From positions 569,362-633,361 of the forward strand of contig CAWKAO010000003.1 of assembly GCA_963847665.1 (NCBI GenBank): DNA of 64,000 nucleotides. The letters run 5' to 3'. This DNA is from an uncultured Actinomycetes bacterium (GTDB lineage: Bacteria > Actinomycetota > Humimicrobiia > Humimicrobiales > Humimicrobiaceae). Positions 6,485 through 63,148 of the stretch are shown in pieces. Made by a program: the position numbers and the translations under genes. Position 1 is the stretch's first letter; every line of letters begins with the position of its first letter. The notes beneath the pieces are model-generated. The model ran no database searches, was not told the origin of the DNA, and was given only the letters and a program-made list of their open reading frames with translations.

Positions 6485-7510
6485 ATGAAAATCAGATTTC
6501 TAAAAATTGCTTTTATAGCAACAGTCTGCCTTGCACTGGTACTGTCGGTATCATTTTTCGGATGCAAGCAAGCAGCAGCTGAGGATGAAGGAGGAATGTC
6601 TGTAACTACTTATGCAAAAGCTGAGGATATCACCATAGGCTATTCACTCTGGACAATGCAGTATACTTTTTTCCAGAATCTTGAAAAAGGCGTAAAAGAT
6701 GCATGTGCTGATTTTGGATTTAAGTATGTAATGATCGACCAGAACAGTGACGCCACAAAAATGGTCCAGGATATGAATTCACTAGTTGGCCAGAAAGTAA
6801 GCGGAATAGTTTCTACACCGGTCGATCCGGGAGCAATGGGTCCTGCAGTAGAAAATGCAAGGCAGAACGGTATTCCTGTTGTCTGCGCTGATATCGGAAA
6901 ATCAGGTCCCGTAAATGCTCTGATGATCTCTAACAATTTCAAGGGCGGCGAGCTTGCAGCAGAATTCCTGGCTGGCAAGATAAATGATAATACTAAAACT
7001 CTTGGACTTGGCAACCTTCTTCCGCAATGGACATATGCAAGGCAGAGAGGTGAAGGTTTTCTGTCAAAAGCACTGGAACTTGAATATCCTGTAGGTGCAA
7101 ATATAATCGTCCAGAATCCAAGTGCTGAAGGTGGATATGATACTATGCAGCAGATACTTTCAGCAATTCCAGATGTTGCCGGTGTTTACTTTACCAGTGG
7201 TAGAGAAGCTGTAGGTGCTGCACAGGCAATCCAGGCAGCAGGTAAGGATATATGGTCCGTAGGATATAACGGTGACCCGGAAGAATTCCAGGCAATTAAA
7301 GACGGAGTCCTGGATGCAACAATACTTCAGGAACCTTACTTTATAGGTTATAGATCTGTTGAGATCCTGAAAGAGATTCTTCTTGACGGTGCATTCTATG
7401 AAAACGTTGAGGTGCCTGTAGATGTAAAATTGGTCACTCCTGAGAATATGGACCAGATTGCAGCAGACATTCTTGAAAAGACAGGTAATTCAGCATTTCC
7501 AGCTGAATAA
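6485..7510 (+). CDS. periplasmic sugar-binding lipoprotein (RbsB/LacI-type fold) of the ABC transporter
   Basis: Signal peptide with lipobox FFGC at residue 26. Typical periplasmic-binding-protein domain. RBS AAGGAGG upstream. Confidence 0.8.
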   Translation: MKIRFLKIAFIATVCLALVLSVSFFGCKQAAAEDEGGMSVTTYAKAEDITIGYSLWTMQYTFFQNLEKGVKDACADFGFKYVMIDQNSDATKMVQDMNSLVGQKVSGIVSTPVDPGAMGPAVENARQNGIPVVCADIGKSGPVNALMISNNFKGGELAAEFLAGKINDNTKTLGLGNLLPQWTYARQRGEGFLSKALELEYPVGANIIVQNPSAEGGYDTMQQILSAIPDVAGVYFTSGREAVGAAQAIQAAGKDIWSVGYNGDPEEFQAIKDGVLDATILQEPYFIGYRSVEILKEILLDGAFYENVEVPVDVKLVTPENMDQIAADILEKTGNSAFPAE

Positions 7511-7562
7511 TATTAGATAGATAACTGAAACAACTAAATTCTAGATCTAGGATTTAGAGAAA

Positions 7563-7594
7563 CTGGCAGAGACAAGTCCTCTGCCAGTTTTTTA
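7563..7594 (+). terminator. Rho-independent terminator of the sugar ABC operon
   Basis: CTGGCAGAG (7563-7571) pairs with CTCTGCCAG (7579-7587) around a 7-nt loop, followed by TTTTTTATT. Confidence 0.6.
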
Positions 7595-7634: not shown

Positions 7635-7659
7635 AATTGTGATGCTTAAGATCACAATT
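7635..7659 (+). promoter_or_regulatory. 25-bp inverted repeat AATTGTGAT-N7-ATCACAATT, candidate operator upstream of the flavinylation operon
   Basis: Perfect 9-bp arms with TGTGA/TCACA cores, about 100 nt upstream of the 7757 start. Spacing does not match canonical CRP or Rex sites. Confidence 0.3.
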
Positions 7660-7756
7660 AAGACCTCTTTCATAAATTCTTCATTTTTATCCAATATAAT
7701 CTGATTAAAAGATATAAATTTATCTTAAAAACAAATAGAAGAAAGAGAAAAAAATA

Positions 7757-8470
7757 ATGAAGATACATTTTAAAAAAATACTGGTCTCATTCATTGCGAT
7801 AGTAGGGTTTGTGGTATATGCGCTTTACCAGCGTAATATTGGTACCGGACAGGAACTTATAGGTGCAGTACCGGAAATGACCACTACTACTGTTGCCCAA
7901 ACATCAGCGGATAATCCAGCGGTAACGACCGAAATACAAACAGCTGCTTCAAACCCACCCCTGGATACATCTAACGGTGATGTAGCATATGAAAGTCAGG
8001 ACAGCAATGAATATGGTGATGGGGAAGACGGTGAAGATGAAGAAGATGGGTATTCCAGCAGCCAGACAACGCAAACAACAGTAAATAATACGACAACAAC
8101 TGCTCCTGCAACTACAGATACTGCCAGTTCAGGTACTACAACAAATAATACATCCGGTTCCAGCAGCACAACCACTTCGGCCGGTCTTTATAAAGACGGC
8201 CAGTTCGATGGCATTTCTGCAGATGCTTATTATGGCTTTGTACAGGTAAGGGCTATTGTACAGAACGGAAACCTTACAGATGTACAATTTTTAAGCTATC
8301 CGAATGACAGAAGCTATTCGGTCCAGATAAATACTTATGCAATGCCCCTTCTTAAATCGGAGGCAATAAAAGTCCAGAGTGCCCAGGTCAACATTATCTC
8401 TGGAGCAACAAATACAAGCAGGGCATTTATGACTTCATTATCTTCTGCCCTAACTCAGGCTCAGGTGTGA
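7757..8470 (+). CDS. membrane-anchored FMN-binding-domain protein (FMN_bind) with flavinylation motif SGAT and a long S/T/N/D/E-rich linker
   Basis: N-terminal TM helix, low-complexity T/S/N linker, and a C-terminal FMN_bind-like domain containing ISGATNTS. This matches the ApbE target motif [S/T]GA[T/S]. Confidence 0.7.
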   Translation: MKIHFKKILVSFIAIVGFVVYALYQRNIGTGQELIGAVPEMTTTTVAQTSADNPAVTTEIQTAASNPPLDTSNGDVAYESQDSNEYGDGEDGEDEEDGYSSSQTTQTTVNNTTTTAPATTDTASSGTTTNNTSGSSSTTTSAGLYKDGQFDGISADAYYGFVQVRAIVQNGNLTDVQFLSYPNDRSYSVQINTYAMPLLKSEAIKVQSAQVNIISGATNTSRAFMTSLSSALTQAQV

Positions 8471-9229
8471 ACATGAAATATATAAGAGATATGATGGGGA
8501 CCACAGTGACAATCGAGGTTGTTGACCCCGACATCACAAAAGGAGATATTGATAAAGTATTTTTATATTTTGAAAGTGTTGAAAACAGGTTTAGCGTGTT
8601 TAAACCTGATAGTGAAATATCCCTGATAAATGATGGCAAAGTTGAAAAGAAACATTGGAGTAACGATATGAAGACTATATTTGGACTTGCAGAAAAGACA
8701 AAAAAGGAAACAAGAGGATTTTTTAATATTGTCACAACTGATGGAAAATACAATCCCTCAGGTATTGTAAAGGGATGGGCAATATATAATGCTTCCAGAC
8801 TATTGCTTGCCCGGGGTTTTAAAAATTTCTACATAGATGCAGGCGGAGATATACAGGTCCATGGCCTGAATCCTGAGAATAAATACTGGAGCATCGGGAT
8901 CAAAAATCCTTTTGACCAGTCGACAGATTGTAAAAGTCATCTACCTGAAAGATTGTGGTATTGCGACTTCCGGGACATATATAAGGGGACAGCATATTTA
9001 TAATCCTCTGGAGATAAATAAGCCCTCCAGTGAGATCGTCAGCATAAGTGTTATAGGTCCCGATGTTTATGAGGCCGACAGGTTTGCAACTGCTGCTTTT
9101 GCTATGGGAAACCAGGGAATAGACTTTATTGAAGACCTGGATGGTTTTGAAGGATACCAGATAGATAAAAATGGCGCTGGTACAGAGACCAGTGGATTTG
9201 AAAAATATACTTTTTATCAAAAAATATGA
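8467..9229 (+). pseudogene. apbE: ApbE-family FAD:protein FMN transferase, interrupted by a frameshift near 8905-8935
   Basis: ORF 8467-9003 carries the ApbE N-terminal half (GTTVTIEV...YIDAGGDI). ORF 8912-9229 in the +1 frame carries the C-terminal half (IATSGTYIRGQHIYNP...ADRFATAAF). The junction lies at the A5/T4 homopolymers at 8902-8913. No signal peptide is present. Confidence 0.75.
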
Positions 9230-9242
9230 TTTGGATAATATT

Positions 9243-10769
9243 ATGAAAATAATTAAAAAAATTGATGGATTTTTAAATGGAATAACGATGTACAGGACAG
9301 TATTATACAGTCTGCTGTTAATGCTTGCAGCAGCACTTGCCTTTAGTGCCTTCGGTTTGATGCCTTTTAACCCGCTTGCTCTTATCCTTTCGACCGGATT
9401 TATTCTAGCAGTCTCTGTTCTTTCCAATGCTGTTTTTGCATGGGCCTTTAATGCGCCCAGTAATATTGAATCGGTCTATATAACAGCATTGATTTTAGCA
9501 CTGATCATAACTCCAGTTGACGGGTTGGTTAATATTGTTTTTTTAAGCTGGGTATCAGTCCTTGCCATGGCATCTAAATATATACTGGCTATTGGTAAAA
9601 AACATCTTTTTAATCCCGTAGCCATTTCCCTCGTGATCGTGAGTCTGGCTACGGCTCAGGCAGCAAGCTGGTGGGTCGCAAACCTTTTCATGATGCCATT
9701 TGTAGTTATCAGCGGGTTGCTTCTGGTCAGGAAATTAAAAAGATTTGACCTGGTCCTGGCTTTTCTTACTGTTATGCTTGCTACAAGCTCGATATTCAGT
9801 CTGATAAATGGGCAGGATCTATTGTCAGGGTTACAGAGGGCATTAGTCTATTCTCCCATGCTGTTTTTTGCCTTTATAATGCTGACAGAACCGATGACTG
9901 TACCTCCCGGGAGGTTAACAAGAATATTATATGGTGCAATTGTAGGGTTTTTATTTGCTCCCCAGATCCATATAGGTTCGTTCTATCTTTCTCCTGAACT
10001 GGTTTTGCTCATGGGGAATGTTTTTGCTTATATTGTAAGTCCCGATAATAAACTGATATTGACATTGAATAAGAAAGAAGAGATAGCATCAAATATTTAT
10101 AATTTTGAGTTTGAGCCTGACAGGAAACTGTCATTTAAACCCGGACAGTATATGGAATTTACATTGGAGCATCCTTCACAGGACAGCCGCGGCATAAGAC
10201 GTTTTTTGACAATAGCATCATCACCAACTGAAGAAAAACTGGATCTGGGTATTAAATTTTATGATAGACCCAGCAGTTTTAAAAAATATTTGATGGCTGC
10301 AGGAACGGGCCATAAAATGGTTGCATCCCAGCTGGCAGGCGATTTCACACTGCCCGAGGATAAAAATAAGAAACTGGTATTCATTGCAGGCGGGATCGGC
10401 ATAACACCATTCAGGAGCATGATAAAGTATCTTCTTGACAGGAGTGAAAAGAGAGACATAGTCCTGTTTTACTCCAATTGGACCTGTGATGATATTTCAT
10501 ACAAGGAAATTTTTGATGAAGCAGAAAAGAAACTAGACATAAAAGTAGTATATTCGATTGTCAATGATCCGTCTGTCGTGCCAGATAACCATATACGCTG
10601 TGGATTATTAAATGAAAGAGATATTATTGAAGAGGTACCGGATTATAGGGAAAGGCTCTTCTTTATTTCGGGTCCACCTTCCATGGTAAATACTTTTGTG
10701 GCTTCCCTGAAAAAGATCGGTGTAGGAAAGAATAATATTAAAACTGATTATTTTCCGGGTTTTGCTTAA
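9243..10769 (+). CDS. membrane-anchored FNR-like oxidoreductase: N-terminal polytopic domain plus C-terminal FAD-binding and NAD(P)-binding domains
   Basis: Roughly 6 TM helices are followed by RRFLTIASSP (a flavin-binding RxYS-like motif) and GGIGITPF (NAD(P)-binding). The upstream in-frame start at 9171 overlaps apbE. No His pairs suggesting b-type haem are present. Confidence 0.7.
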   Translation: MKIIKKIDGFLNGITMYRTVLYSLLLMLAAALAFSAFGLMPFNPLALILSTGFILAVSVLSNAVFAWAFNAPSNIESVYITALILALIITPVDGLVNIVFLSWVSVLAMASKYILAIGKKHLFNPVAISLVIVSLATAQAASWWVANLFMMPFVVISGLLLVRKLKRFDLVLAFLTVMLATSSIFSLINGQDLLSGLQRALVYSPMLFFAFIMLTEPMTVPPGRLTRILYGAIVGFLFAPQIHIGSFYLSPELVLLMGNVFAYIVSPDNKLILTLNKKEEIASNIYNFEFEPDRKLSFKPGQYMEFTLEHPSQDSRGIRRFLTIASSPTEEKLDLGIKFYDRPSSFKKYLMAAGTGHKMVASQLAGDFTLPEDKNKKLVFIAGGIGITPFRSMIKYLLDRSEKRDIVLFYSNWTCDDISYKEIFDEAEKKLDIKVVYSIVNDPSVVPDNHIRCGLLNERDIIEEVPDYRERLFFISGPPSMVNTFVASLKKIGVGKNNIKTDYFPGFA

Positions 10770-10843
10770 AAAAGAAAGTAATGGCTAAAATCATTTATTT
10801 CAGATTTTCTTTTATTAATCTTAAAAAATGATATAAATTTAGG

Positions 10844-11563
10844 ATGAATGAAATAGATGGTTTAAAGCAAAGCAATCAGAATAGTCTTATGAAGATCATA
10901 ATCATTGAAGATTCAGAAAAATTAGCAGGTTTTTTAAAGAAAGGCCTTGAAAATGAAGGTTATGCTGTCGATTGTTTTTATGATGGCATAAGCGGTGAGA
11001 AGCATATCCTGTTTAATTTCGAGGATTATGACCTGGTAATCCTGGACCTGATGCTTCCGGATAAAAACGGCCTGGATATCTGCAGGAATATAAGAGAGAA
11101 AAATATCAAGATCCCAGTACTGATGCTGACCGCAAAGGACTCGACAATGGATAAGGTCACAGGGCTTGACAGCGGGGCAGATGATTACCTGGTAAAACCT
11201 TTTGAGTTTGAAGAATTACTTGCAAGGATCAGGGCACTTTTCAGGAGGCCAAATAATAGCCTACCCCTTGAGCTCAGGGTAAGGGACCTTGTTTTAAATC
11301 CTTCCACAAAGAAGGTGTTCAGGGGAGATAAGGAAATAACCCTGACCCTGAAAGAATTCAGGATGTTAGAATACCTTATGAGAAATGCCGGTATAACGAT
11401 TTCGCGTGATAAGATACTGGACAGTCTCTGGGATTTTGATTTTGATTCCTTCAGTAATGTCGTTGATGTCCATATGAAGAACTTAAGAAAAAAGGTGGAC
11501 GGAAATTATAAGGAAAAGCTGATCGAAACTGTTTTTGGAATTGGGTACAGGCTTAAAAAATGA
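10844..11563 (+). CDS. OmpR-family response regulator
   Basis: Receiver domain (DLMLPD...K) plus a C-terminal winged-helix domain (TLTLKEFRMLEYLM...VFGIGYRL). Confidence 0.85.
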   Translation: MNEIDGLKQSNQNSLMKIIIIEDSEKLAGFLKKGLENEGYAVDCFYDGISGEKHILFNFEDYDLVILDLMLPDKNGLDICRNIREKNIKIPVLMLTAKDSTMDKVTGLDSGADDYLVKPFEFEELLARIRALFRRPNNSLPLELRVRDLVLNPSTKKVFRGDKEITLTLKEFRMLEYLMRNAGITISRDKILDSLWDFDFDSFSNVVDVHMKNLRKKVDGNYKEKLIETVFGIGYRLKK

Positions 11564-12684
11564 CTGATAACAGAATTAATAAAAAAAACAATAAAACAGG
11601 AGACAGCAAGAGCAATATTTTCCTTCTGGCCAGGATAAAATTGACTATTTTTTATACAGCTTTCATTGCTGTTCTTGTTTTTATTTTCAGCATTGCCATT
11701 TATTTTAGCTATTCCTATTATCTGCAGGGCAGCTTCCAGGAAGAACTTACAGAGATAGAAAATGAAAATCAAACAACACTGGATTCTGGAGATGATGGTG
11801 AGCATATTGCAAATAATACTATAACTCCTGAACAGATAAGGAAGAGTGCTTCCAGCCGTCTCAGCAATATTATACTTATCGCAGACGGAGCAATAATCAT
11901 AATCGCTGCTTTTCTGGGATATACCCTTGCAGGGGTAACTCTTCGCCCCATCCAGAAAAACCATGAGATACAGAAAAGATTTATGTCAGACACCTCCCAC
12001 GAATTGCGGACACCGCTCAGTATTATGAAAACAGGGCTGGAAGTCCAGATGAGGAATCCAACCTGTCCACCTGAATGCAAACCTGTATTGAGCAGTAACC
12101 TGGAAGAGGTAAATAGAATGTCAGGGTTGGTCAAGGACCTCCTGTTGATCTCACGGATGGATTCGGGAAGTGAGGTCTTCACTTCTGAAGAGATCGACCT
12201 TGAAAAGCTGCTTGATTGCGCCCTTCATAGTATCCAGGATTATGCAAAGGAGAAAAAGATAGAGATAAAATCAAATGGCAGAAACACTATATTGCCTGAA
12301 GGTAATGATAAAAAAACCAATGGATCGGTATTTATTATTGGAGACCCTGATAAATTAAAACAGGCTTTTTTTAATATTCTTAAGAACGCTGTCGATTATT
12401 CTGATGAAGGCGGAAAAATAGACATCACTACGACCAGACAGCCGCGTTTTATCCAGGTAGAAATAATGGATAATGGTCCGGGTATACCGGAAGACGAGCT
12501 GCAATATATTTTTGAAAGATTTTACAGGGCAAAAAATGCAGCATCCTTATCCAAAGAAGGAAGTGGACTGGGACTTGCCATCACAAAAGAAATAATACTG
12601 AATCACAGGGGGAGTATTAAAATCGAAAGCCTGTATGGAAGCTGGACAAAAGCAATAGTGATCCTTCCTGTCAGTAACCGATGA
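11560..12684 (+). CDS. sensor histidine kinase
   Basis: Two TM helices flank a periplasmic loop. H-box SHELRTPL and HATPase_c motifs (NAVDYS, DNGPGI, GSGLGL) are present. Overlaps the response regulator by 4 nt. Confidence 0.85.
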   Translation: MTDNRINKKNNKTGDSKSNIFLLARIKLTIFYTAFIAVLVFIFSIAIYFSYSYYLQGSFQEELTEIENENQTTLDSGDDGEHIANNTITPEQIRKSASSRLSNIILIADGAIIIIAAFLGYTLAGVTLRPIQKNHEIQKRFMSDTSHELRTPLSIMKTGLEVQMRNPTCPPECKPVLSSNLEEVNRMSGLVKDLLLISRMDSGSEVFTSEEIDLEKLLDCALHSIQDYAKEKKIEIKSNGRNTILPEGNDKKTNGSVFIIGDPDKLKQAFFNILKNAVDYSDEGGKIDITTTRQPRFIQVEIMDNGPGIPEDELQYIFERFYRAKNAASLSKEGSGLGLAITKEIILNHRGSIKIESLYGSWTKAIVILPVSNR

Positions 12685-47006: not shown

Positions 47007-47036
47007 AGGAAAAGATCTGGTACCGGTAGAATATTA
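47007..47036 (+). terminator. intercistronic stem-loop (12-bp perfect stem) between the SBP and permease genes; partial terminator/attenuator
   Basis: CTGGTACCGGTA gaatat TACCGGTACCAG, followed by a T-rich but interrupted tail. Confidence 0.4.
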
Positions 47037-47081
47037 CCGGTACCAGAAAGAAGTTTGTAGTTTTATTTGGTTATTTAATAT

Positions 47082-51584: not shown

Positions 51585-52941
51585 ATGTCAAAGAGAGCGG
51601 CACAATGGGGCGAGGAAGCAAAGACAATTTCAAAAATACTTGAGAAATCTCCTGATATAGACAAATCAAAGAGGATAACAACAGCAGAATTTAAAAAGCG
51701 ACAGCAGAATGTCATGGATGCTCTTTCTGCAAATGGAATAGACTGTGCATTTGTATACTCGAATGAACATTATAACGGGGATGTACCCTATCTGGGGGGA
51801 AATACAAACATCTCTATAGAACCGGTTGCAGGTGTTATCGGTAAGGGTGGTTTTCATATGCTTGCAGGACTGGAGGGCGGTTATGTAGCTGAGCAGCTTG
51901 CCGGAAGGGCAGGGATCAAGGTCCATAAAGTAGAGATGCTCAAGCTTGCTGATGAGGAATATCCGGTGGACGCAGAAAAGTTCGAGGATGTCATTGAAGA
52001 GGCAGCTGGAGGAAGGCCAAAAGTAGTAGGGTTGCTTACACCAAGGGCGGTCTTTCCGGTAGATATGTATGAATTCATTCTTGAATATCTTGGCAGTTCA
52101 GGAAAAGTGGTCGATGCCCAGGAACTTTACTATAAGATCAAATATGAAAAAAGTGAAATGGAAATGGACCTTATAAGGGATGCAAGCCTCATCTGTGATG
52201 AGATGCTAAAAGGGATGCTTGCAGTATTAAAACCCGGGATGCTGGAAACGGAAGTAGCGGGCTGGGGATATGCAATAGGCCAGGAGCTTGGTTCTGAAGA
52301 ATTTGGATTTGATGTAATGGTGACAGCAAATGAGGCAAACAGGACCCTTATAGGCAAAGCTTTAAACCGCCCGATAATCGAAGGTGATATTGTACATCTC
52401 GGAGTTGCCCCAAAAAGAGATGGACTTACCGCTTGTGAGCGGGTAAGCGTTGTCGCAACATCATGACCCTAAAAATATAACATCGCAGCAGAAATACTGG
52501 ATCAGTTTTATTGAAGAAGCTTTTAAAGTCGGTCTTGAAGCATATAAAAAAGTCGCTGCTGAAAATCTTCCTGCAAAACTGCAGGAGCAGGCTCTTGAAA
52601 ACTATTTTAAATCCAGGGAAGAAGAAGTGTCAAAAATGATCGGGAAAAAGATAGACCTGGTAAGGCAAAAACCATATACAGGCACACATAATGCGGGTTA
52701 TACAGAATGCCAGGAATTCTATGGTGCAATAACCCTTAACTCAGAAGAACCGCTTGGTAACAGGATAGTGACAATGCTCGATGTCGCTGTAAGGGGAGTC
52801 GGAAATAAATGGGATGATATCGTCATCCCTGGTCTTGATTTTGTACTTGTAGAAAAGACTCTCGGTAAGTTCGGTAAACAGGTGGAAGTATTAAATAAGT
52901 TACCAATAAATGTACAGCATCTGGTCGGGGCAAGGTATTGA
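51585..52941 (+). pseudogene. second M24-family creatinase-like hydrolase, frameshifted near 52450-52462
   Basis: ORF 51585-52466 has the creatinase-N domain plus the first half of the pita-bread fold. ORF 52450-52941 in the +1 frame carries the remainder (YTGTHNAGYTECQEF...). Confidence 0.7.
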
Positions 52942-57974: not shown

Positions 57975-59189
57975 TTATAAATAACACCAGCTGACTTTTT
58001 CAAGCCTGGAAAGTTTGGGTTCAAATGCGGCCGGCTTCCTGCCAAAGCATATTCCTGTTTTTTCATAAAATGATATCATAGCATCCTTGACGTGCCTTTG
58101 CCTGATAGCCTCCTCGGTGGGAATATACTCTACTATTCCATCATTGACACCAGTAACAGTGACACCTGTTATTCCGTTTACAAGAAGGACCACTGCGCCT
58201 GCACCGGTATCCTTACCGAAATTTGCATCAAGAGCGCTGGTGCTCCCTGAACGGACAAGATAACCCAGTACAGTCTCCCTGACCTGCGGGACCTCGTTCA
58301 TCTTTTCTACGTATAAGCCCTGGTCTTTCATGAACTGTATGAACTCAGGATCATTTTTTATCCTGTTTGTAAGGTTTTCCCGGACATATTTTCCTACTCC
58401 TGAAAGTTTCTTGTGTCCAAAAGAATCGACTGCCACAGAATCATCTATCACACATTCGCCCGTACAATCAGTCATACCTTCTGCAACAACGACCACATAT
58501 GTACCCGCCTTATAATCACTTTGACTCACGCGTCTGAAAAAAGTCTCCTTCAGATGTTTATATACAATATCAAAATCCATCGGGATCTCTGGTATAAGAA
58601 TACAATCAGCATCTGCTGCTATTCCTCCACGAAAAGCTGTATGTCCTGCATATCGGCCGAACACTTCTACTACCATGACCCTGTTGTGGCTGTTGCCTGT
58701 CGTTTTGAGCTCATTTATATATTGGGCAATCCTGTTTACAGCAGAATCTCCTCCGACAGAGTATGAATGGAGGTCCAGGTCCATAGTCTTGGGAACATGA
58801 ATGCAAGGTATGCCATTATTGTTAAGGTCCACTACTACACTTCCTGTGTCATCGCCGCCGGAGATTACAAGAGCTCCGATATTAAATTTTTTGAGGCCTG
58901 CAATGATCTTATCGTATTTATGGTCATCATCTATCTTTGATATCTTGACCCTGGAATTTCCAGCCTGGGAGCCTGCTGCCATGGATGGGATCTGTTCAAG
59001 TCTGTGAGTATCCATCTTTATGATGTTTCCGCTATCATAAAGGTTATATAGACCTGCATAGCCATTTGGGATCACATATGCTTCTATCCCGTAAGCAATA
59101 GCCATGCTTGCAGCACCCTTTACCACAGCGTTTAAGCCCCCGCAATCACCACCGCTTGTTATAATGCCTATTGATTTTTCCTTTAACAT
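57975..59189 (-). CDS. pfk: 6-phosphofructokinase (PFK-A family; ATP- or PPi-dependent)
   Basis: Motifs GIITSGGDCGGLN, GGDDT/GS and MVVEVFGRYAG. Length is 404 aa. Confidence 0.85.
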   Translation of the reverse strand: MLKEKSIGIITSGGDCGGLNAVVKGAASMAIAYGIEAYVIPNGYAGLYNLYDSGNIIKMDTHRLEQIPSMAAGSQAGNSRVKISKIDDDHKYDKIIAGLKKFNIGALVISGGDDTGSVVVDLNNNGIPCIHVPKTMDLDLHSYSVGGDSAVNRIAQYINELKTTGNSHNRVMVVEVFGRYAGHTAFRGGIAADADCILIPEIPMDFDIVYKHLKETFFRRVSQSDYKAGTYVVVVAEGMTDCTGECVIDDSVAVDSFGHKKLSGVGKYVRENLTNRIKNDPEFIQFMKDQGLYVEKMNEVPQVRETVLGYLVRSGSTSALDANFGKDTGAGAVVLLVNGITGVTVTGVNDGIVEYIPTEEAIRQRHVKDAMISFYEKTGICFGRKPAAFEPKLSRLEKVSWCYL

Positions 59190-59498
59190 CTTTGTCCTCT
59201 CTTTGCCTATATATTCTAGATCAGATTATTTTTTATTCTATTTAATATTTAAGCCTGTTTTTAAGCCATTTTAATATAGAAAAATATTTCTAAATAAATA
59301 TAGCATAAATCCTTTAAAAATTATGAAATTCTGCTGAAAAAATAAATATATTATAAATTACGGGATCCTATAAATAGCTATGATTTGTTTCAGGAGCTGG
59401 TATAAACTCAGAACACACTTTCAGGATATTAAAATCGGCTTTCACCAAAGGCTATAACAGAGTTGTCTATTAAATGGATCATAAGTTTTTGAAAACCC

Positions 59499-59529
59499 TT
59501 GACAATAATGTAGGTTAAAATGCTATAAT
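59499..59529 (+). promoter_or_regulatory. promoter of the ROK regulator gene (TTGACA ... extended -10 TGCTATAAT)
   Basis: TTGACA at 59499-59504 and TGnTATAAT at 59521-59529. Confidence 0.45.
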
Positions 59530-59536
59530 TATAAAC

Positions 59537-59559
59537 AACTTAGTTAATTTAACTAAGTT
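59537..59559 (+). promoter_or_regulatory. 23-bp palindromic operator AACTTAGTTAA-T-TTAACTAAGTT (XylR/ROK-type)
   Basis: Perfect 11-bp arms immediately downstream of the -10 element. Resembles known XylR-type operator half-sites (..TTAGTT / AACTAA..). Confidence 0.45.
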
Positions 59560-59608
59560 ATATTCTGATTTTGGAAATCACTGATTATTTTACTTTAATA
59601 ATTATATT

Positions 59609-60859
59609 ATGATTTCAAACTTAAAAGTTTTAAATACACTTAGCTCTAAACATCAGCTCTTGATCAATAAATCTATAATACTCAATTATTTAATGGAAAA
59701 CACTTCTGTCTCAAGAGCCAAAATAGCAACTGACCTTCAAATAAGCCCACCAACTGTATCCAAAATAATCGATGAGTTGATCTCGGAGGGATTTGTCATT
59801 GAAATAGGAAAAGACCTTTCCACTGGCGGGAAAAAAGCCATTAGGCTAAGTTTTAATAATAAAAGTGGAAGTGTTATTGGTGTTGACCTTGGTAAGGATA
59901 AAATAAGGATAGTAAGAAGCGACATGGGGGGCCAGGTGCTTGAAAAACATGTAGGATTTGATATTTATTATAAGGATAAGGACTTATTAGAAAAAGTAAT
60001 AAATGAGATTCAAATGTTTATTGATGGCATTGATTTAAATGATGAAAATGGTAATGTTGAATTAAAGGGTATATGTATAGGAATTCCTGCTGATATAAAT
60101 TCAGAAAGTGGTAAAGTGATCAGTTCATCTCTTTTTGCAGACTGGCAGGATTTAAATCTGAAGGAAATATTTTCAAAATATTTCGATATAGAAATATTTA
60201 TTGAAAACAGTAAAAATATGGCAGCTATTGGTGAGAAAAACCGTGGCGTAGGCCAACAATATAAGGATTTTGTGATTGTAGAAGTCGGAGAAGGTATTGG
60301 TGCTGGGATAATACTTGATGACCAGCTTTTCAGGGGATCGAGTTTTTCAGCTGGTGAAGTCGGTTTTATCATTGATAATAAAAAACAGATGTACTCTACC
60401 TATAAGATAAAAGGTGCCATGGAAAAAACGGCTTCTCCGAATATTTTAAAACAGAACATGATTAATGTAATTAAATCCAATAAAAGAACACTTGTCACTG
60501 AATTATCAGGGAATAATATTAATGATATCAACCCTTCAATTGTTTGTAAGGCAGCACTCCTTGGGGATAAGCCTTCAAAAAAAATAATTAAAAATGTTGT
60601 TGAAAATTTATCGATTATAATATTAAACCTTACATTGATACTAAATCCTGAAATCATAGTAATCGGTGGAGACCTGCTGGAACTTCCTGAGGTAGAAAAA
60701 TTGTTTATAGATCCCATTAAAGAATTAATAAAGAATATTGTACCGTTCAAAACTCCCATAGTTAAGTCAGCTTCTCTTGGGGTAGACGCAGGAGTCCTTG
60801 GTTGTTCAATTTTTGCAATAAGTAATATTTTAGGTACCTTATATCCTTATAAGATCTAA
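59609..60859 (+). CDS. ROK-family transcriptional regulator (NagC/XylR-like)
   Basis: N-terminal winged HTH, then a ROK sugar-kinase-like domain (GVDLG...GEGIGAGII, Cys/His zinc motif). Length is 416 aa. Confidence 0.8.
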   Translation: MISNLKVLNTLSSKHQLLINKSIILNYLMENTSVSRAKIATDLQISPPTVSKIIDELISEGFVIEIGKDLSTGGKKAIRLSFNNKSGSVIGVDLGKDKIRIVRSDMGGQVLEKHVGFDIYYKDKDLLEKVINEIQMFIDGIDLNDENGNVELKGICIGIPADINSESGKVISSSLFADWQDLNLKEIFSKYFDIEIFIENSKNMAAIGEKNRGVGQQYKDFVIVEVGEGIGAGIILDDQLFRGSSFSAGEVGFIIDNKKQMYSTYKIKGAMEKTASPNILKQNMINVIKSNKRTLVTELSGNNINDINPSIVCKAALLGDKPSKKIIKNVVENLSIIILNLTLILNPEIIVIGGDLLELPEVEKLFIDPIKELIKNIVPFKTPIVKSASLGVDAGVLGCSIFAISNILGTLYPYKI

Positions 60860-61002: not shown

Positions 61003-63148
61003 ATGAAAGAAGATAAGTACCCAAATCTTTTTAAACCACTAAGGATCGGAAGTGTAGTTGCTAAAAATAGGATTAACTTTGAGCCTACAGCCATTAGTTG
61101 TTCCAATGCTGACGGTTCTGTAAGTGAACTGGATATAGCAGTATATTCAGAGATAGCCAAGGGTGGCTACAGTATGATCAATATTGGCGGGTGTACTCCA
61201 GATTCAAAGACCGGCCGGGTGACCGTTACCGGTGTAATCATCGATGAGGATAATATGATACCTGGAATGGCAAGGCTGGCAAAAAGTATCCAGAAATATG
61301 GAGCACTTGCTATACCTCAGATACAACACCCGGGGAGGCAGTGCCCCATGCCTAAAGGTAGCTACATGTCTACCAACGATCAGGTGGTCAAGCTTCCATG
61401 GTCTGCGGGACATGAGATCGTTTTTGCAAATGCAGAAGAAAAAGGTAAAGAGATTAAAGCAATGTCCACACAGGAGATCCTCGAACAGGTTGAATTATGG
61501 TCTCTGGCCGCCTGGAGATGCCAGGCAGCAGGGTTTGATGCAGTATGCCTGCACGCTGCGCACGGTTATCTTATGTCAGCATTCCTGAGCCCATATCTAA
61601 ATCGTCGTATCGACCGTTTTGGAGGAAACTTTGAAAATCGTATGCTTTTCCCATTATCAATCATCAAAGAGATCCACAATAAGTGCGGAAATGATTTTCC
61701 GGTTATTGTACGTTTTTCTGCTAATGAATGGGTTCCTGGTGGAATAGATATTGAAGAAAGCAAAAGAATTGCAGTAGCACTGGAGGAAGGTGGAGCTGCT
61801 GCGCTTGATTTAAGCCAGTGTATTCAGGAGACTCCTGGCGCTGGTTTTGACCCTATGCATTATCAGGAGGGCTGGACAATATATTCTGCTGAAGCAGTAA
61901 AACCGCTCGTAAAGATACCGGTAATCATAAGCCATGCTCTAAGGCATCCGGATGTCTGCGAGAAAATAATTGCTGATGGCAAAGCTGATATGATCGGTAT
62001 GTGTCGACAGGCACTCGCTGATCCTTATTGGCCTCTAAAAGTCCAGCAGGGCAAAGAAGAAAAAATCAGGAAGTGCATATCATGTCTTACAGGTTGCTGG
62101 CAGGAATCCCTCATGGCTAAGAAAGACATAGCATGTGCTGTCAACCCGAGTCTGTGGTGATCTGAACTTCTATAATATGGATAAAAGCCCGGCTAAGAAG
62201 TCCTTAAAGATAGCAATCGTAGGTGGCGGTCCGGCTGGTATGGAAGCTGCACGATGGGCAGTCCTTCGTGGTCACAAGCCCATTATTTTTGAGAAGAAAA
62301 ACGAACTTGGTGGAGCCATATTAGGTTGCTGCCTTGTTCCTGACAAAGACAAGATGAAATGGCAGGCTGACTGGTTAAGGTATGAGATCCGAGACCTTGG
62401 TGTTGAGGTTAAAATGGAACATGTGCCTACTGCAGAAGAGCTAAAGAAATATGATGTGGTCTTAAATGCCACAGGTGCAGTAAGTTATGTACCTGAAGCC
62501 AATGGATTAAAAGACAAAGTCATCTCGATGGAAGCAGCGTTCTCATGTCCAAAAGCCACATGTGAGTTTTATCCAAAAGGAAGTGGAAGAAAGGGTGTCA
62601 AGCTTGGAGAGAAAGTAATAATCTGGGGTGATCATTATGGCGCTGCAGACCTTGTTGCTTTCCTGGGTGCAGCCGGTAAAGATGTGACCGTTGTAACAGA
62701 CAGGAAAGAATTTGGTTCAAGTGTAGAAGTAATACATATGTATGTACTTAGGAAACGTATGGCCCAGGGTGATGCTGAAGCTCTCCATTCAAAACCATAT
62801 AAATACCCGGTCAAGGTATTCCAGGGCTCGACCTTATATAACATCGGTGAAAAAGAAGTCCAGATCATAAGTAATAACTTAAACATCACAAAAGTCCAAG
62901 CCGATGATATCGTAACATGCTACACGAGACCGAATACAGAACTTGCTGGAGTATTTGAAAAAGTCGAAGCTGCAGGAATACCAGTTGTAACAGTTGGAGA
63001 TGCTAAGAGCCCAAGAAATCTTCATGCTGCAATTAAAGAAGCTGCATCCTTTATCCTTCAGCTTGAGCCTGATCATGTAATAAAGAATCCTAATGGTGCC
63101 CTTATTGATGATCTACCGATAGATGTTAAAGGACAGCTTGGTTTTTAA
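61003..63148 (+). pseudogene. OYE-family Fe-S flavoenzyme (2-enoate reductase / 2,4-dienoyl-CoA reductase-like), split by a 1-nt frameshift at about 62155
   Basis: ORF 61003-62160 has an Old Yellow Enzyme TIM barrel plus the Cys cluster CISCLTGCWQ and ends CAVNPSLW*. ORF 62135-63148 in the +1 frame carries the FAD/NAD(P)-binding domain (IAIVGGGPAGMEAA). Skipping T62155 gives CAVNPSLGDLNFYN..., colinear with FadH. Confidence 0.7.

Follow-up and report, generated by a model that had tools for sequence, protein, structure and literature searches.

Among the flavinylation-associated electron-transfer systems catalogued by Méheust et al. (2021), one is termed the "NQR/RNF-like system". In the passages of that article devoted to it (PMC8238504), it is recognised by a protein of a flavinylation gene cluster that carries an N-terminal PF03116 and a C-terminal PF00175 domain, and 127 such clusters are reported, chiefly from Actinobacteria and the candidate phyla radiation. 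For a Ktedonobacter complex, the part of Huang et al. (2024) that presents the model (PMC11334425) describes a membrane domain without the flavinylated threonine of NqrB and RnfD, places the flavin mononucleotide (FMN) domain at the outer face beside the position of the NqrB FMN (AlphaFold-multimer), and suggests that the small subunit's covalent FMN visits a non-covalent flavin site of the membrane domain. Here we describe a related locus on a 64,000-nt stretch of DNA (hereafter the window) from an uncultured Actinomycetes bacterium of the Humimicrobiaceae (contig CAWKAO010000003.1, positions 569,362 to 633,361). An open reading frame (ORF) survey of the window revealed five genes on the plus strand at 7757-12684, namely for an FMN_bind protein, an ApbE FAD:protein FMN transferase, a fusion of a membrane domain with an FNR-type module, a response regulator and a sensor histidine kinase. 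We consider it about 75% probable that this unit is a member of the NQR/RNF-like system with a dedicated two-component regulator. The locus is not a new transmembrane partner, as its family has already been defined bioinformatically.

At the sequence level the unit shows what characterises the published system: a cluster with FMN_bind and apbE genes, PF03116 at the N-terminus and PF00175 at the C-terminus of the membrane protein, and a membrane domain without the acceptor threonine. Both consist of the same two subunits with the same adjoining apbE, and the host is in keeping with the distribution reported for the system (Actinobacteria and candidate phyla radiation). The window locus differs from the published system in its frameshifted ApbE and in the unusual length of the FMN_bind stalk (122 aa). 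Term searches of the published descriptions (PMC8238504 and PMC11334425) returned no mention of a signal-less ApbE or of a linked two-component system or promoter box, and no discussion of where ApbE is localised in the NQR/RNF-like system.

The Na+-NQR (NqrB, NqrC, NqrF) and RNF (RnfD, RnfG) complexes share with the unit a homologous membrane fold, an FAD/NAD module and an FMN_bind protein that is flavinylated by ApbE on the threonine of an SGAT motif. In contrast to these complexes, the window unit has one electron path and lacks NqrA/D/E, RnfA/B/C/E and Fe-S centres, its membrane domain is without a covalent FMN site of its own and runs on directly into the fused FNR module, and a quinone or ferredoxin partner is not evident. 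In flavin-based extracellular electron transfer of Listeria (Ndh2, EetA/B, PplA, FmnB), an ApbE-flavinylated surface FMN_bind protein is likewise the last protein-bound carrier of electrons from NADH in a single-membrane cell. There, electrons travel via the quinone pool, and the ApbE, FmnB, is a lipoprotein outside the membrane to which a flavin exporter delivers the substrate (PMC9973259), whereas the route proposed here would be quinone-free and its ApbE has no export signal.

The membrane protein is RnfD/NqrB-like

The third gene of the unit (9243-10769, plus strand) codes for a protein of 508 aa which, according to Pfam, AlphaFold2 and Foldseek, is composed of a membrane domain (residue 1 to ~268) and an FNR module (~270-508). 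An earlier reading of the window, made from the letters and translated ORFs only (the sequence-only reading), had described a membrane protein fused to an FNR-type module with the motifs RRFLTIASSP and GGIGITPF. This fusion is indeed present, with the motifs at residues 319 and 383, but the accompanying estimate of about six transmembrane helices was too low, as ten helices are predicted to precede the FNR module (AlphaFold2; pLDDT, the predicted local distance difference test, 82.5 at full length and 79 for the membrane domain alone). Clusters of lysine and arginine occupy every other loop, and the chain passes from the tenth helix into the FNR module. The module itself matched NAD_binding_1 (PF00175; 47 bits, E 4.7e-12) and FAD_binding_6 (E 2.5e-4), and its closest solved relatives are the FAD/NAD domains of NqrF (E 9e-16).

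On the membrane domain we detected PF03116 (NQR2_RnfD_RnfE; 26.3 bits, E 6e-6, with the Pfam gathering cut-off at 27.7) and the NCBIfam model RsxD (E 7e-6), and PF03116 is precomputed for most homologues of the protein. A profile built from 13 membrane-domain sequences had a single match in the PDB, the RnfD chain 8ahx_D (E 2.2e-4). A Foldseek search with the full-length model was uninformative on the membrane part, returning matches to the FNR module only (flavohaemoglobin, NqrF and NOX), and the membrane domain was also modelled alone. With this model the top 14 PDB matches consisted of RnfD and NqrB chains throughout (query-normalised TM-scores 0.56-0.74; RnfD 0.69-0.74, NqrB ~0.6), and the next matches had E > 0.1. 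The membrane domain is thus RnfD/NqrB-like, and the NQR/RNF half of the previous statement that the transmembrane partner is "neither NQR/RNF-like nor NOX-like" was wrong. A new class of transmembrane partner, as that statement implied, could still draw on the PF03116 score being marginally under the gathering threshold, which made the relationship invisible to a reader without tools. It is refuted by the RnfD profile match and the uniform Foldseek result, and the Pfam annotation of most homologues and the fit to the published family definition also speak against it, so that its probability is negligible.

The motif [STG]GA[TS], which would mark a covalent flavin site, was absent from the membrane domain of all 120 homologues inspected, in agreement with Huang et al. 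(2024); the outer loop reads Q(S/A)A(S/T/N)WW. The membrane domain contains two histidines only, H121 in a KKH loop (9603-9605) and H243 in a QIHIG hairpin (9969-9971), and both are invariant across 26 diverse homologues. In the predicted topology they lie on opposite faces of the membrane and would not form a bis-His haem site, in agreement with the sequence-only reading, which had seen no haem-ligating histidine pairs; they are candidates for flavin-site residues. NOX/FRE proteins and MsrQ-Fre have an analogous function, with an NAD(P)H-oxidising FNR module feeding a transmembrane conduit to an acceptor outside. Their conduit consists of six helices with two bis-His haem sites, whereas that of the window protein has the RnfD fold and would work with flavins only. 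The NOX structures among the Foldseek matches were retrieved via the FNR module alone.

The FMN_bind protein and its acceptor threonine

The first gene (7757-8470, plus strand) codes for a protein of 237 aa with an NqrC/RnfG-type domain. The main features that had been noted for it before were found: a single N-terminal hydrophobic helix as membrane anchor, a long linker, here delimited to 122 aa consisting mostly of Thr, Ser, Gly, Ala and Asp, a C-terminal FMN_bind domain (PF04205, E 6e-6), and the motif ISGATNTS with Thr218 as the acceptor residue. In the PDB the covalent-FMN domain 8p2a_A matches best (E 1.4e-9), and the SGAT motifs of both proteins are aligned. Conservation of the acceptor threonine had been set beforehand as a test by which flavinylation of this protein could be refuted. 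The FMN_bind gene products of all 80 loci kept for comparison (see below) have Thr or Ser at this position (SGAT in 56, SGAS in 15, TGAT in seven, and GGAT and TGAS in one each), and the reading survives.

The flanks of the anchor have a mean net charge of +1.96 on the N-terminal and +0.19 on the C-terminal side, and the N-terminal flank is the more positive one in 70 of 79 homologues. This positive-inside bias predicts an N-in, C-out orientation, which would place the FMN domain outside the membrane. Low-complexity linkers rich in Thr and Ser are typical of exported stalks. A pair of arginines occurs in the N-terminal flank of just three of the 79 homologues. Some variation in subunit number was seen at three loci (L058, L062 and L072), where some cassettes encode two FMN_bind paralogues and some have no ApbE inside the cassette; all three have an adjoining two-component system.

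Conservation and genomic neighbourhood of the cassette

A scan of species-representative genomes yielded at least 591 loci, of which 80 were kept for comparison; these belong to Patescibacteria, Chloroflexota, Actinomycetota and a few other groups. The genes for FMN_bind, ApbE and the membrane-FNR protein follow each other in this order on one strand at 66 of the 80 loci, spanning three phyla. Taken singly, an FMN_bind gene adjoins the membrane-FNR gene at 76 loci and an apbE gene at 69. The published count of 127 clusters is lower than ours, and the filter for predicted signal peptides or lipidation sites that is mentioned in the corresponding part of Méheust et al. (PMC8238504) may explain the difference. 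The membrane-FNR protein has thousands of close homologues with 53-70% identity across phyla, and the membrane domain alone matched 366 clusters at 50% identity with E-values up to 1e-30. The nearest relatives (67-70% identity) come from metagenome-assembled genomes of Actinomycetota, the named ones being "Candidatus Humimicrobiaceae". The sequence-only reading would have been refuted by an FNR-like protein that belongs to a known family with unrelated genomic context. The protein does belong to a known family, but the context in that family is the same and not an unrelated one.

The fold homology to RnfD and NqrB of ion-translocating complexes, together with the very strong conservation of transmembrane motifs at such identities across phyla, raises the question whether the complex is an ion-motive device, in which the membrane domain couples flavin redox chemistry to the movement of Na+ or H+, either conserving energy or being driven by the gradient. 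Genes for other Nqr or Rnf subunits were found neither beside the unit in the window nor within 5.5 kb upstream and 4.5 kb downstream at the 80 loci. The partners NqrD/E and RnfA/E and the second path of the semicircular coupled route are accordingly missing, as they also are from the system in the pertinent passages of PMC8238504, which makes ion-motive coupling quite improbable.

Genes that recur in the neighbourhood of the cassette code for regulators (extracytoplasmic function (ECF) sigma factors, response regulators and kinases), for MacAB-type ATP-binding cassette (ABC) transporters, and for HlyD and major facilitator superfamily transporters. Specifically, a gene for an ECF-type sigma-70 factor is located near the cassette at 15 of the 80 loci (e.g. 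L006, 55-624, minus strand), and components of MacB/FtsX-type ABC transporters recur at 10-14.

A frameshifted ApbE without export signal

The second gene (8473-9229, plus strand) codes for a short form of ApbE. An ApbE transferase gene had been reported to follow the FMN_bind gene, and a homologue is present at this position; it is, however, not a single ORF, and the frameshift had been missed. One piece is read in frame 1 from 8473 to ~8919 and matches PF02424 over profile positions 1-180 (E 6e-24), the other is read in frame 2 from ~8921 to 9229 and covers positions 180-259 (E 4e-9). When eight orthologous ApbEs were compared with the window by tblastn, the switch of frame fell between 8913 and 8927, and the extra base (+1) is T8920 in the context GACCAGTCGACAG, outside any homopolymer run or slippery site. 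Across the junction the closest orthologue reads GIKNPFNQEQIVKIVYL, while the window reads GIKNPFDQ, T8920 and RQIVKVIYL. Removal of T8920 gives a protein of 251 aa that aligns continuously over the junction with ApbE of Vibrio cholerae (6nxi) and retains the motifs ATSG..Y, HIYNP and ADRFAT. Programmed frameshifting was ruled out, because a slippery sequence is absent and the orthologues are single ORFs.

The frameshift either is an indel error in the sequence, or flavinylation relies on the ApbE of a paralogous cassette on the same contig. The membrane-FNR protein of that cassette (P0021) is 65% identical to the one studied here. Like the window protein it is recorded on a contig of 707,984 bp, presumably the same one, but it is encoded outside the window; upstream of it lies an intact apbE for a product of 247 aa, and downstream a gene for a DUF5698/DUF2179 membrane protein. 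Should the apbE of the window be truly broken, this cassette might provide the missing activity in trans. Taken one step further, the window cassette might be a decaying, non-functional copy whose frameshift is real, any function being provided by the paralogous cassette. The position of the extra base outside a homopolymer and away from slippery sites and the existence of the paralogue speak for decay. On the other hand, the remaining genes of the unit are all intact, and the ApbE motifs have survived on both sides of the shift. A similar split is apparent in an M24/creatinase-like gene of the window, where the ORFs 51585-52466 and 52450-52941 (plus strand) overlap in different frames (the first matches the profile at positions 2-91 of 208, while the second lacks a Pfam match of its own and reads like an M24 continuation), which suggests assembly indels in the window. 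Split ApbE ORFs were also found at four of the 80 loci, all metagenome-derived (L003, L020, L026 and L066), and could reflect either recurrent assembly indels or recurrent inactivation. We therefore regard decay as a serious possibility, though a doubtful one. A further pair of overlapping ORFs on the plus strand, Oxidored_FMN (old yellow enzyme-like; 61003-62160) and Pyr_redox_2 (62135-63148), shares 26 nt in different frames and resembles a fusion of the 2,4-dienoyl-CoA reductase type; it may represent one more split gene, or just a pair of genes that overlap.

The absence of a signal peptide, which had been pointed out as an oddity of this ApbE, holds, as a hydrophobic segment is lacking in the window protein. 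It is not a quirk of the window locus and appears, from the aligned N-termini, to be a family-wide feature: all 67 cassette ApbEs whose N-terminus could be aligned are ~250 aa long and start at a conserved MK(Q/E)TR(I/L)LMGMP with nothing hydrophobic upstream, and a signal peptide, lipobox or N-terminal extension was absent from each of them. Cytosolic ApbEs that act on cytosolic targets are known, e.g. for the fumarate reductase of Klebsiella (PMC12052999). This might indicate that the FMN_bind domain and its flavinylation are cytoplasmic, or that flavinylation precedes export, and that the published model with an extracytosolic ApbE does not apply to the family. In the cytoplasmic case the covalent FMN might mediate between the FNR module and the RnfD-like domain on the inner side of the membrane. 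However, the charge bias of the anchor predicts the opposite orientation, the Thr/Ser-rich linker has the appearance of an exported stalk, a twin-arginine motif for export in the folded state was not found in the N-terminal flanks, and the AlphaFold-multimer model, as given in the section of PMC11334425 cited above, has the FMN domain at the outer face. On balance we consider a departure of this kind from the published model unlikely. For the cassette as an NQR/RNF-like system our preferred guess is that the protein would be flavinylated in the cytoplasm and subsequently exported by the Sec pathway.

Operon boundaries, promoter box and two-component system

Upstream, the unit is bounded by a terminator-like hairpin with a 15-pair stem and T-run (7557-7593, plus strand), which closes an operon for a sugar ABC transporter; the gene at 6485-7510 codes for the Peripla_BP_4 sugar-binding protein. 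Downstream, a convergent FGGY kinase gene marks the limit. Neither a terminator nor a promoter box was seen in the window between the genes for the membrane-FNR protein and the response regulator, so the five genes are probably co-transcribed. Rfam elements (riboswitches or other RNAs) and tRNAs had no match in the window. Recoding of TGA and a fusion of FMN_bind with ApbE were considered and excluded, as the two genes lie in different frames and the other genes of the window are normal under translation table 11.

The sequence-only reading had drawn attention to a 25-bp TGTGA/TCACA palindrome upstream of the unit. The inverted repeat AATTGTGAT-N7-ATCACAATT with the spacer GCTTAAG is present at 7635-7659, but it is not conserved as a regulatory site, being missing from the upstream regions of the three nearest related loci (L001-L003). 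Inverted repeats with arms of 9 bp or more number eight in the window, this one included, where Markov simulations predict 2.7; the palindrome may be an operator for some regulator or due to chance. Consensus sites of the regulators CRP, FNR and Rex have a spacing of 6 nt. Assignment of the palindrome to any of these three was excluded, since its TGTGA-TCACA spacing is 9 nt and the repeat is not kept in L001-L003. Several further perfect repeats of this type, again with arms of 9 bp or more, are located at 47016-47047 and 59016-60199, among them a 32-bp palindrome (TCTGGTACCGGTAGAATATTACCGGTACCAGA).

The element that is conserved in relatives is a promoter at 7669-7700 (plus strand). It consists of the direct repeat TTCATAAATTC/TTCATTTTTAT at 7669-7689 with a period of 11 bp, followed 10 nt on by TATAAT at 7695-7700, and takes the form TTCAT-N6-TTCAT-N10-TATAAT, in which the repeat overlaps the -35 region. 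Each of L001-L003 has a single copy of the exact 20-mer pattern, at the equivalent position. We scanned the 80 loci and the window with the composite pattern [YTCA(T/C/G)-N6-(C/T/G)TCA(T/C/G)]-N10-TAnnnT and obtained 30 matches as compared to 1.5 in shuffled sequences; 28 of the 30 are on the strand of the cassette, mostly just 5′ of the FMN_bind gene. The loci with a composite box upstream of the cassette are, among others, the window, L001-L004, L013, L058, L062 and L072, and in L013 and L072 the box is also found 5′ of the response-regulator gene itself. Such an architecture is typical of activators of the PhoB/OmpR type that replace the -35 element. The PhoB-like direct repeat in front of the cassette thus links it to the adjoining OmpR-type two-component system, and from its pattern the TTCAT-N6-TTCAT box is a putative site of an OmpR/PhoB-type response regulator. 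Boxes of the TTCAT type were also seen before other genes, i.e. in L004 (8601), L061 (minus strand, 1291), L055 (3830), L070 (7980), L013 (9888) and L044 (1201). The non-cassette targets comprise HlyD/MacA-like adaptors, DedA/VTT-type and large polytopic membrane proteins, a small secreted protein and an FAD oxidoreductase, which hints at an envelope-related regulon wider than the cassette.

The pair of an OmpR-family response regulator (10844-11563, plus strand) and a histidine kinase (11560-12684, plus strand) had been recognised correctly as adjoining the unit, and the start of the kinase gene overlaps the stop of the regulator gene by 4 nt. As orthologues of the response regulator begin with MKIL, its true start is likely Met16, at 10889. 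Based on Pfam and NCBIfam models, the response regulator is nearest to the CopR/CusR/RppA/HprR branch, with 241.6 bits for RppA and 240.6 bits for cztR_silR_copR, both just below the respective cut-offs, and 200 bits for HprR. HprR is the CusR-like regulator of msrPQ in E. coli. The kinase has two transmembrane helices with a short outer loop (~45 aa), HisKA and HATPase_c domains, and no HAMP domain. Kinases beside other cassettes likewise have short, poorly conserved outer loops and no HAMP domain, which suggests that the signal is sensed at the membrane or inside it. At 9-11 of the 80 loci the cassette has a closely related response regulator and kinase beside it, in varied arrangements.

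Proposed mechanism and implications

The domain identities, fold, gene order and conservation of motifs and promoter box computed here allow a mechanism to be proposed, of which we infer the direction in which electrons flow, the non-covalent flavin, the position of the FMN domain outside the membrane, the binding of the regulator and the acceptor. The NqrF-like FNR module would oxidise NAD(P)H in the cytoplasm and reduce its own FAD. Electrons would then cross the membrane via the fused ten-helix RnfD/NqrB-like domain, which presumably holds a non-covalent flavin, since it has no site for a covalent one. From there they would reach the FMN that is bound as a phosphoester to Thr218 of the anchored FMN_bind protein, outside on its Thr/Ser-rich stalk, and this FMN could reduce an external acceptor, candidates being Fe(III) or Cu(II), O2, or another component of the envelope. 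ApbE would act as the maturase that installs the FMN, taken from FAD, on the FMN_bind protein. The OmpR-type regulator may activate the operon via the TTCAT-N6-TTCAT box 10 nt upstream of the -10 hexamer and, by read-through, probably also its own gene.

As a prediction, an ApbE-associated module for electron export with a flavinylatable FMN_bind protein and an FNR-type membrane protein that uses NAD(P)H, as had been put forward in the sequence-only reading, is supported by our analysis. Several observations weigh against assigning the locus to a functional NQR/RNF-like system with its own regulator. The window apbE is frameshifted, and the PF03116 score of the membrane domain stays just below the gathering cut-off. 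The lack of an export signal in the window ApbE and its 67 relatives is at odds with the assignment as well, because a cytosolic ApbE fits an exported target poorly. A conserved gene for a terminal reductase or for handling of the acceptor was not found beside the cassette, either at the 80 loci or in the window, and it is from conservation alone that binding of the regulator to the box is deduced. We also found no experimental or biochemical study of the family in the literature, the two accounts of it, PMC8238504 and PMC11334425, being bioinformatic.

The locus itself is an ordinary member of a catalogued family and not a new kind of system. What remains of interest is the signal-less ApbE throughout the family, the conserved regulon box, and the fact that so abundant a family is known from bioinformatics alone. 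The family merits testing, as it is represented by hundreds of loci in species-representative genomes, is very strongly conserved, and is concentrated in lineages whose redox metabolism is poorly understood, namely Patescibacteria, Chloroflexota and Humimicrobiia-like Actinomycetota. Experimental handles are at hand with the acceptor Thr218 and with an ApbE of the cytosolic type, which should express easily. The candidate promoter box and its cognate regulator moreover offer a route to the inducing signal and hence to the physiological acceptor.

More tentatively, and with the odds against it, the signal-less ApbEs could mean that FMN_bind proteins of this family are flavinylated in the cytoplasm and then exported (or that the domain is not outside), and that the cassette forms the core of a conserved OmpR-type regulon. 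If true, this would be a maturation route unlike the accepted one, where both ApbE and the FAD that it uses are exported, and a promoter of the form TTCAT-N6-TTCAT-N10-TATAAT would be common to lineages from Actinomycetota through to the candidate phyla radiation and would, in some genomes, also precede genes for MacA/HlyD-like efflux adaptors and other envelope functions. The candidate phyla radiation (Patescibacteria) is generally described as being without respiratory chains. The cassette would then provide these and other bacteria with a widespread, signal-induced and quinone-free outlet for electrons from NAD(P)H to the outside of the cell, notably in Patescibacteria.

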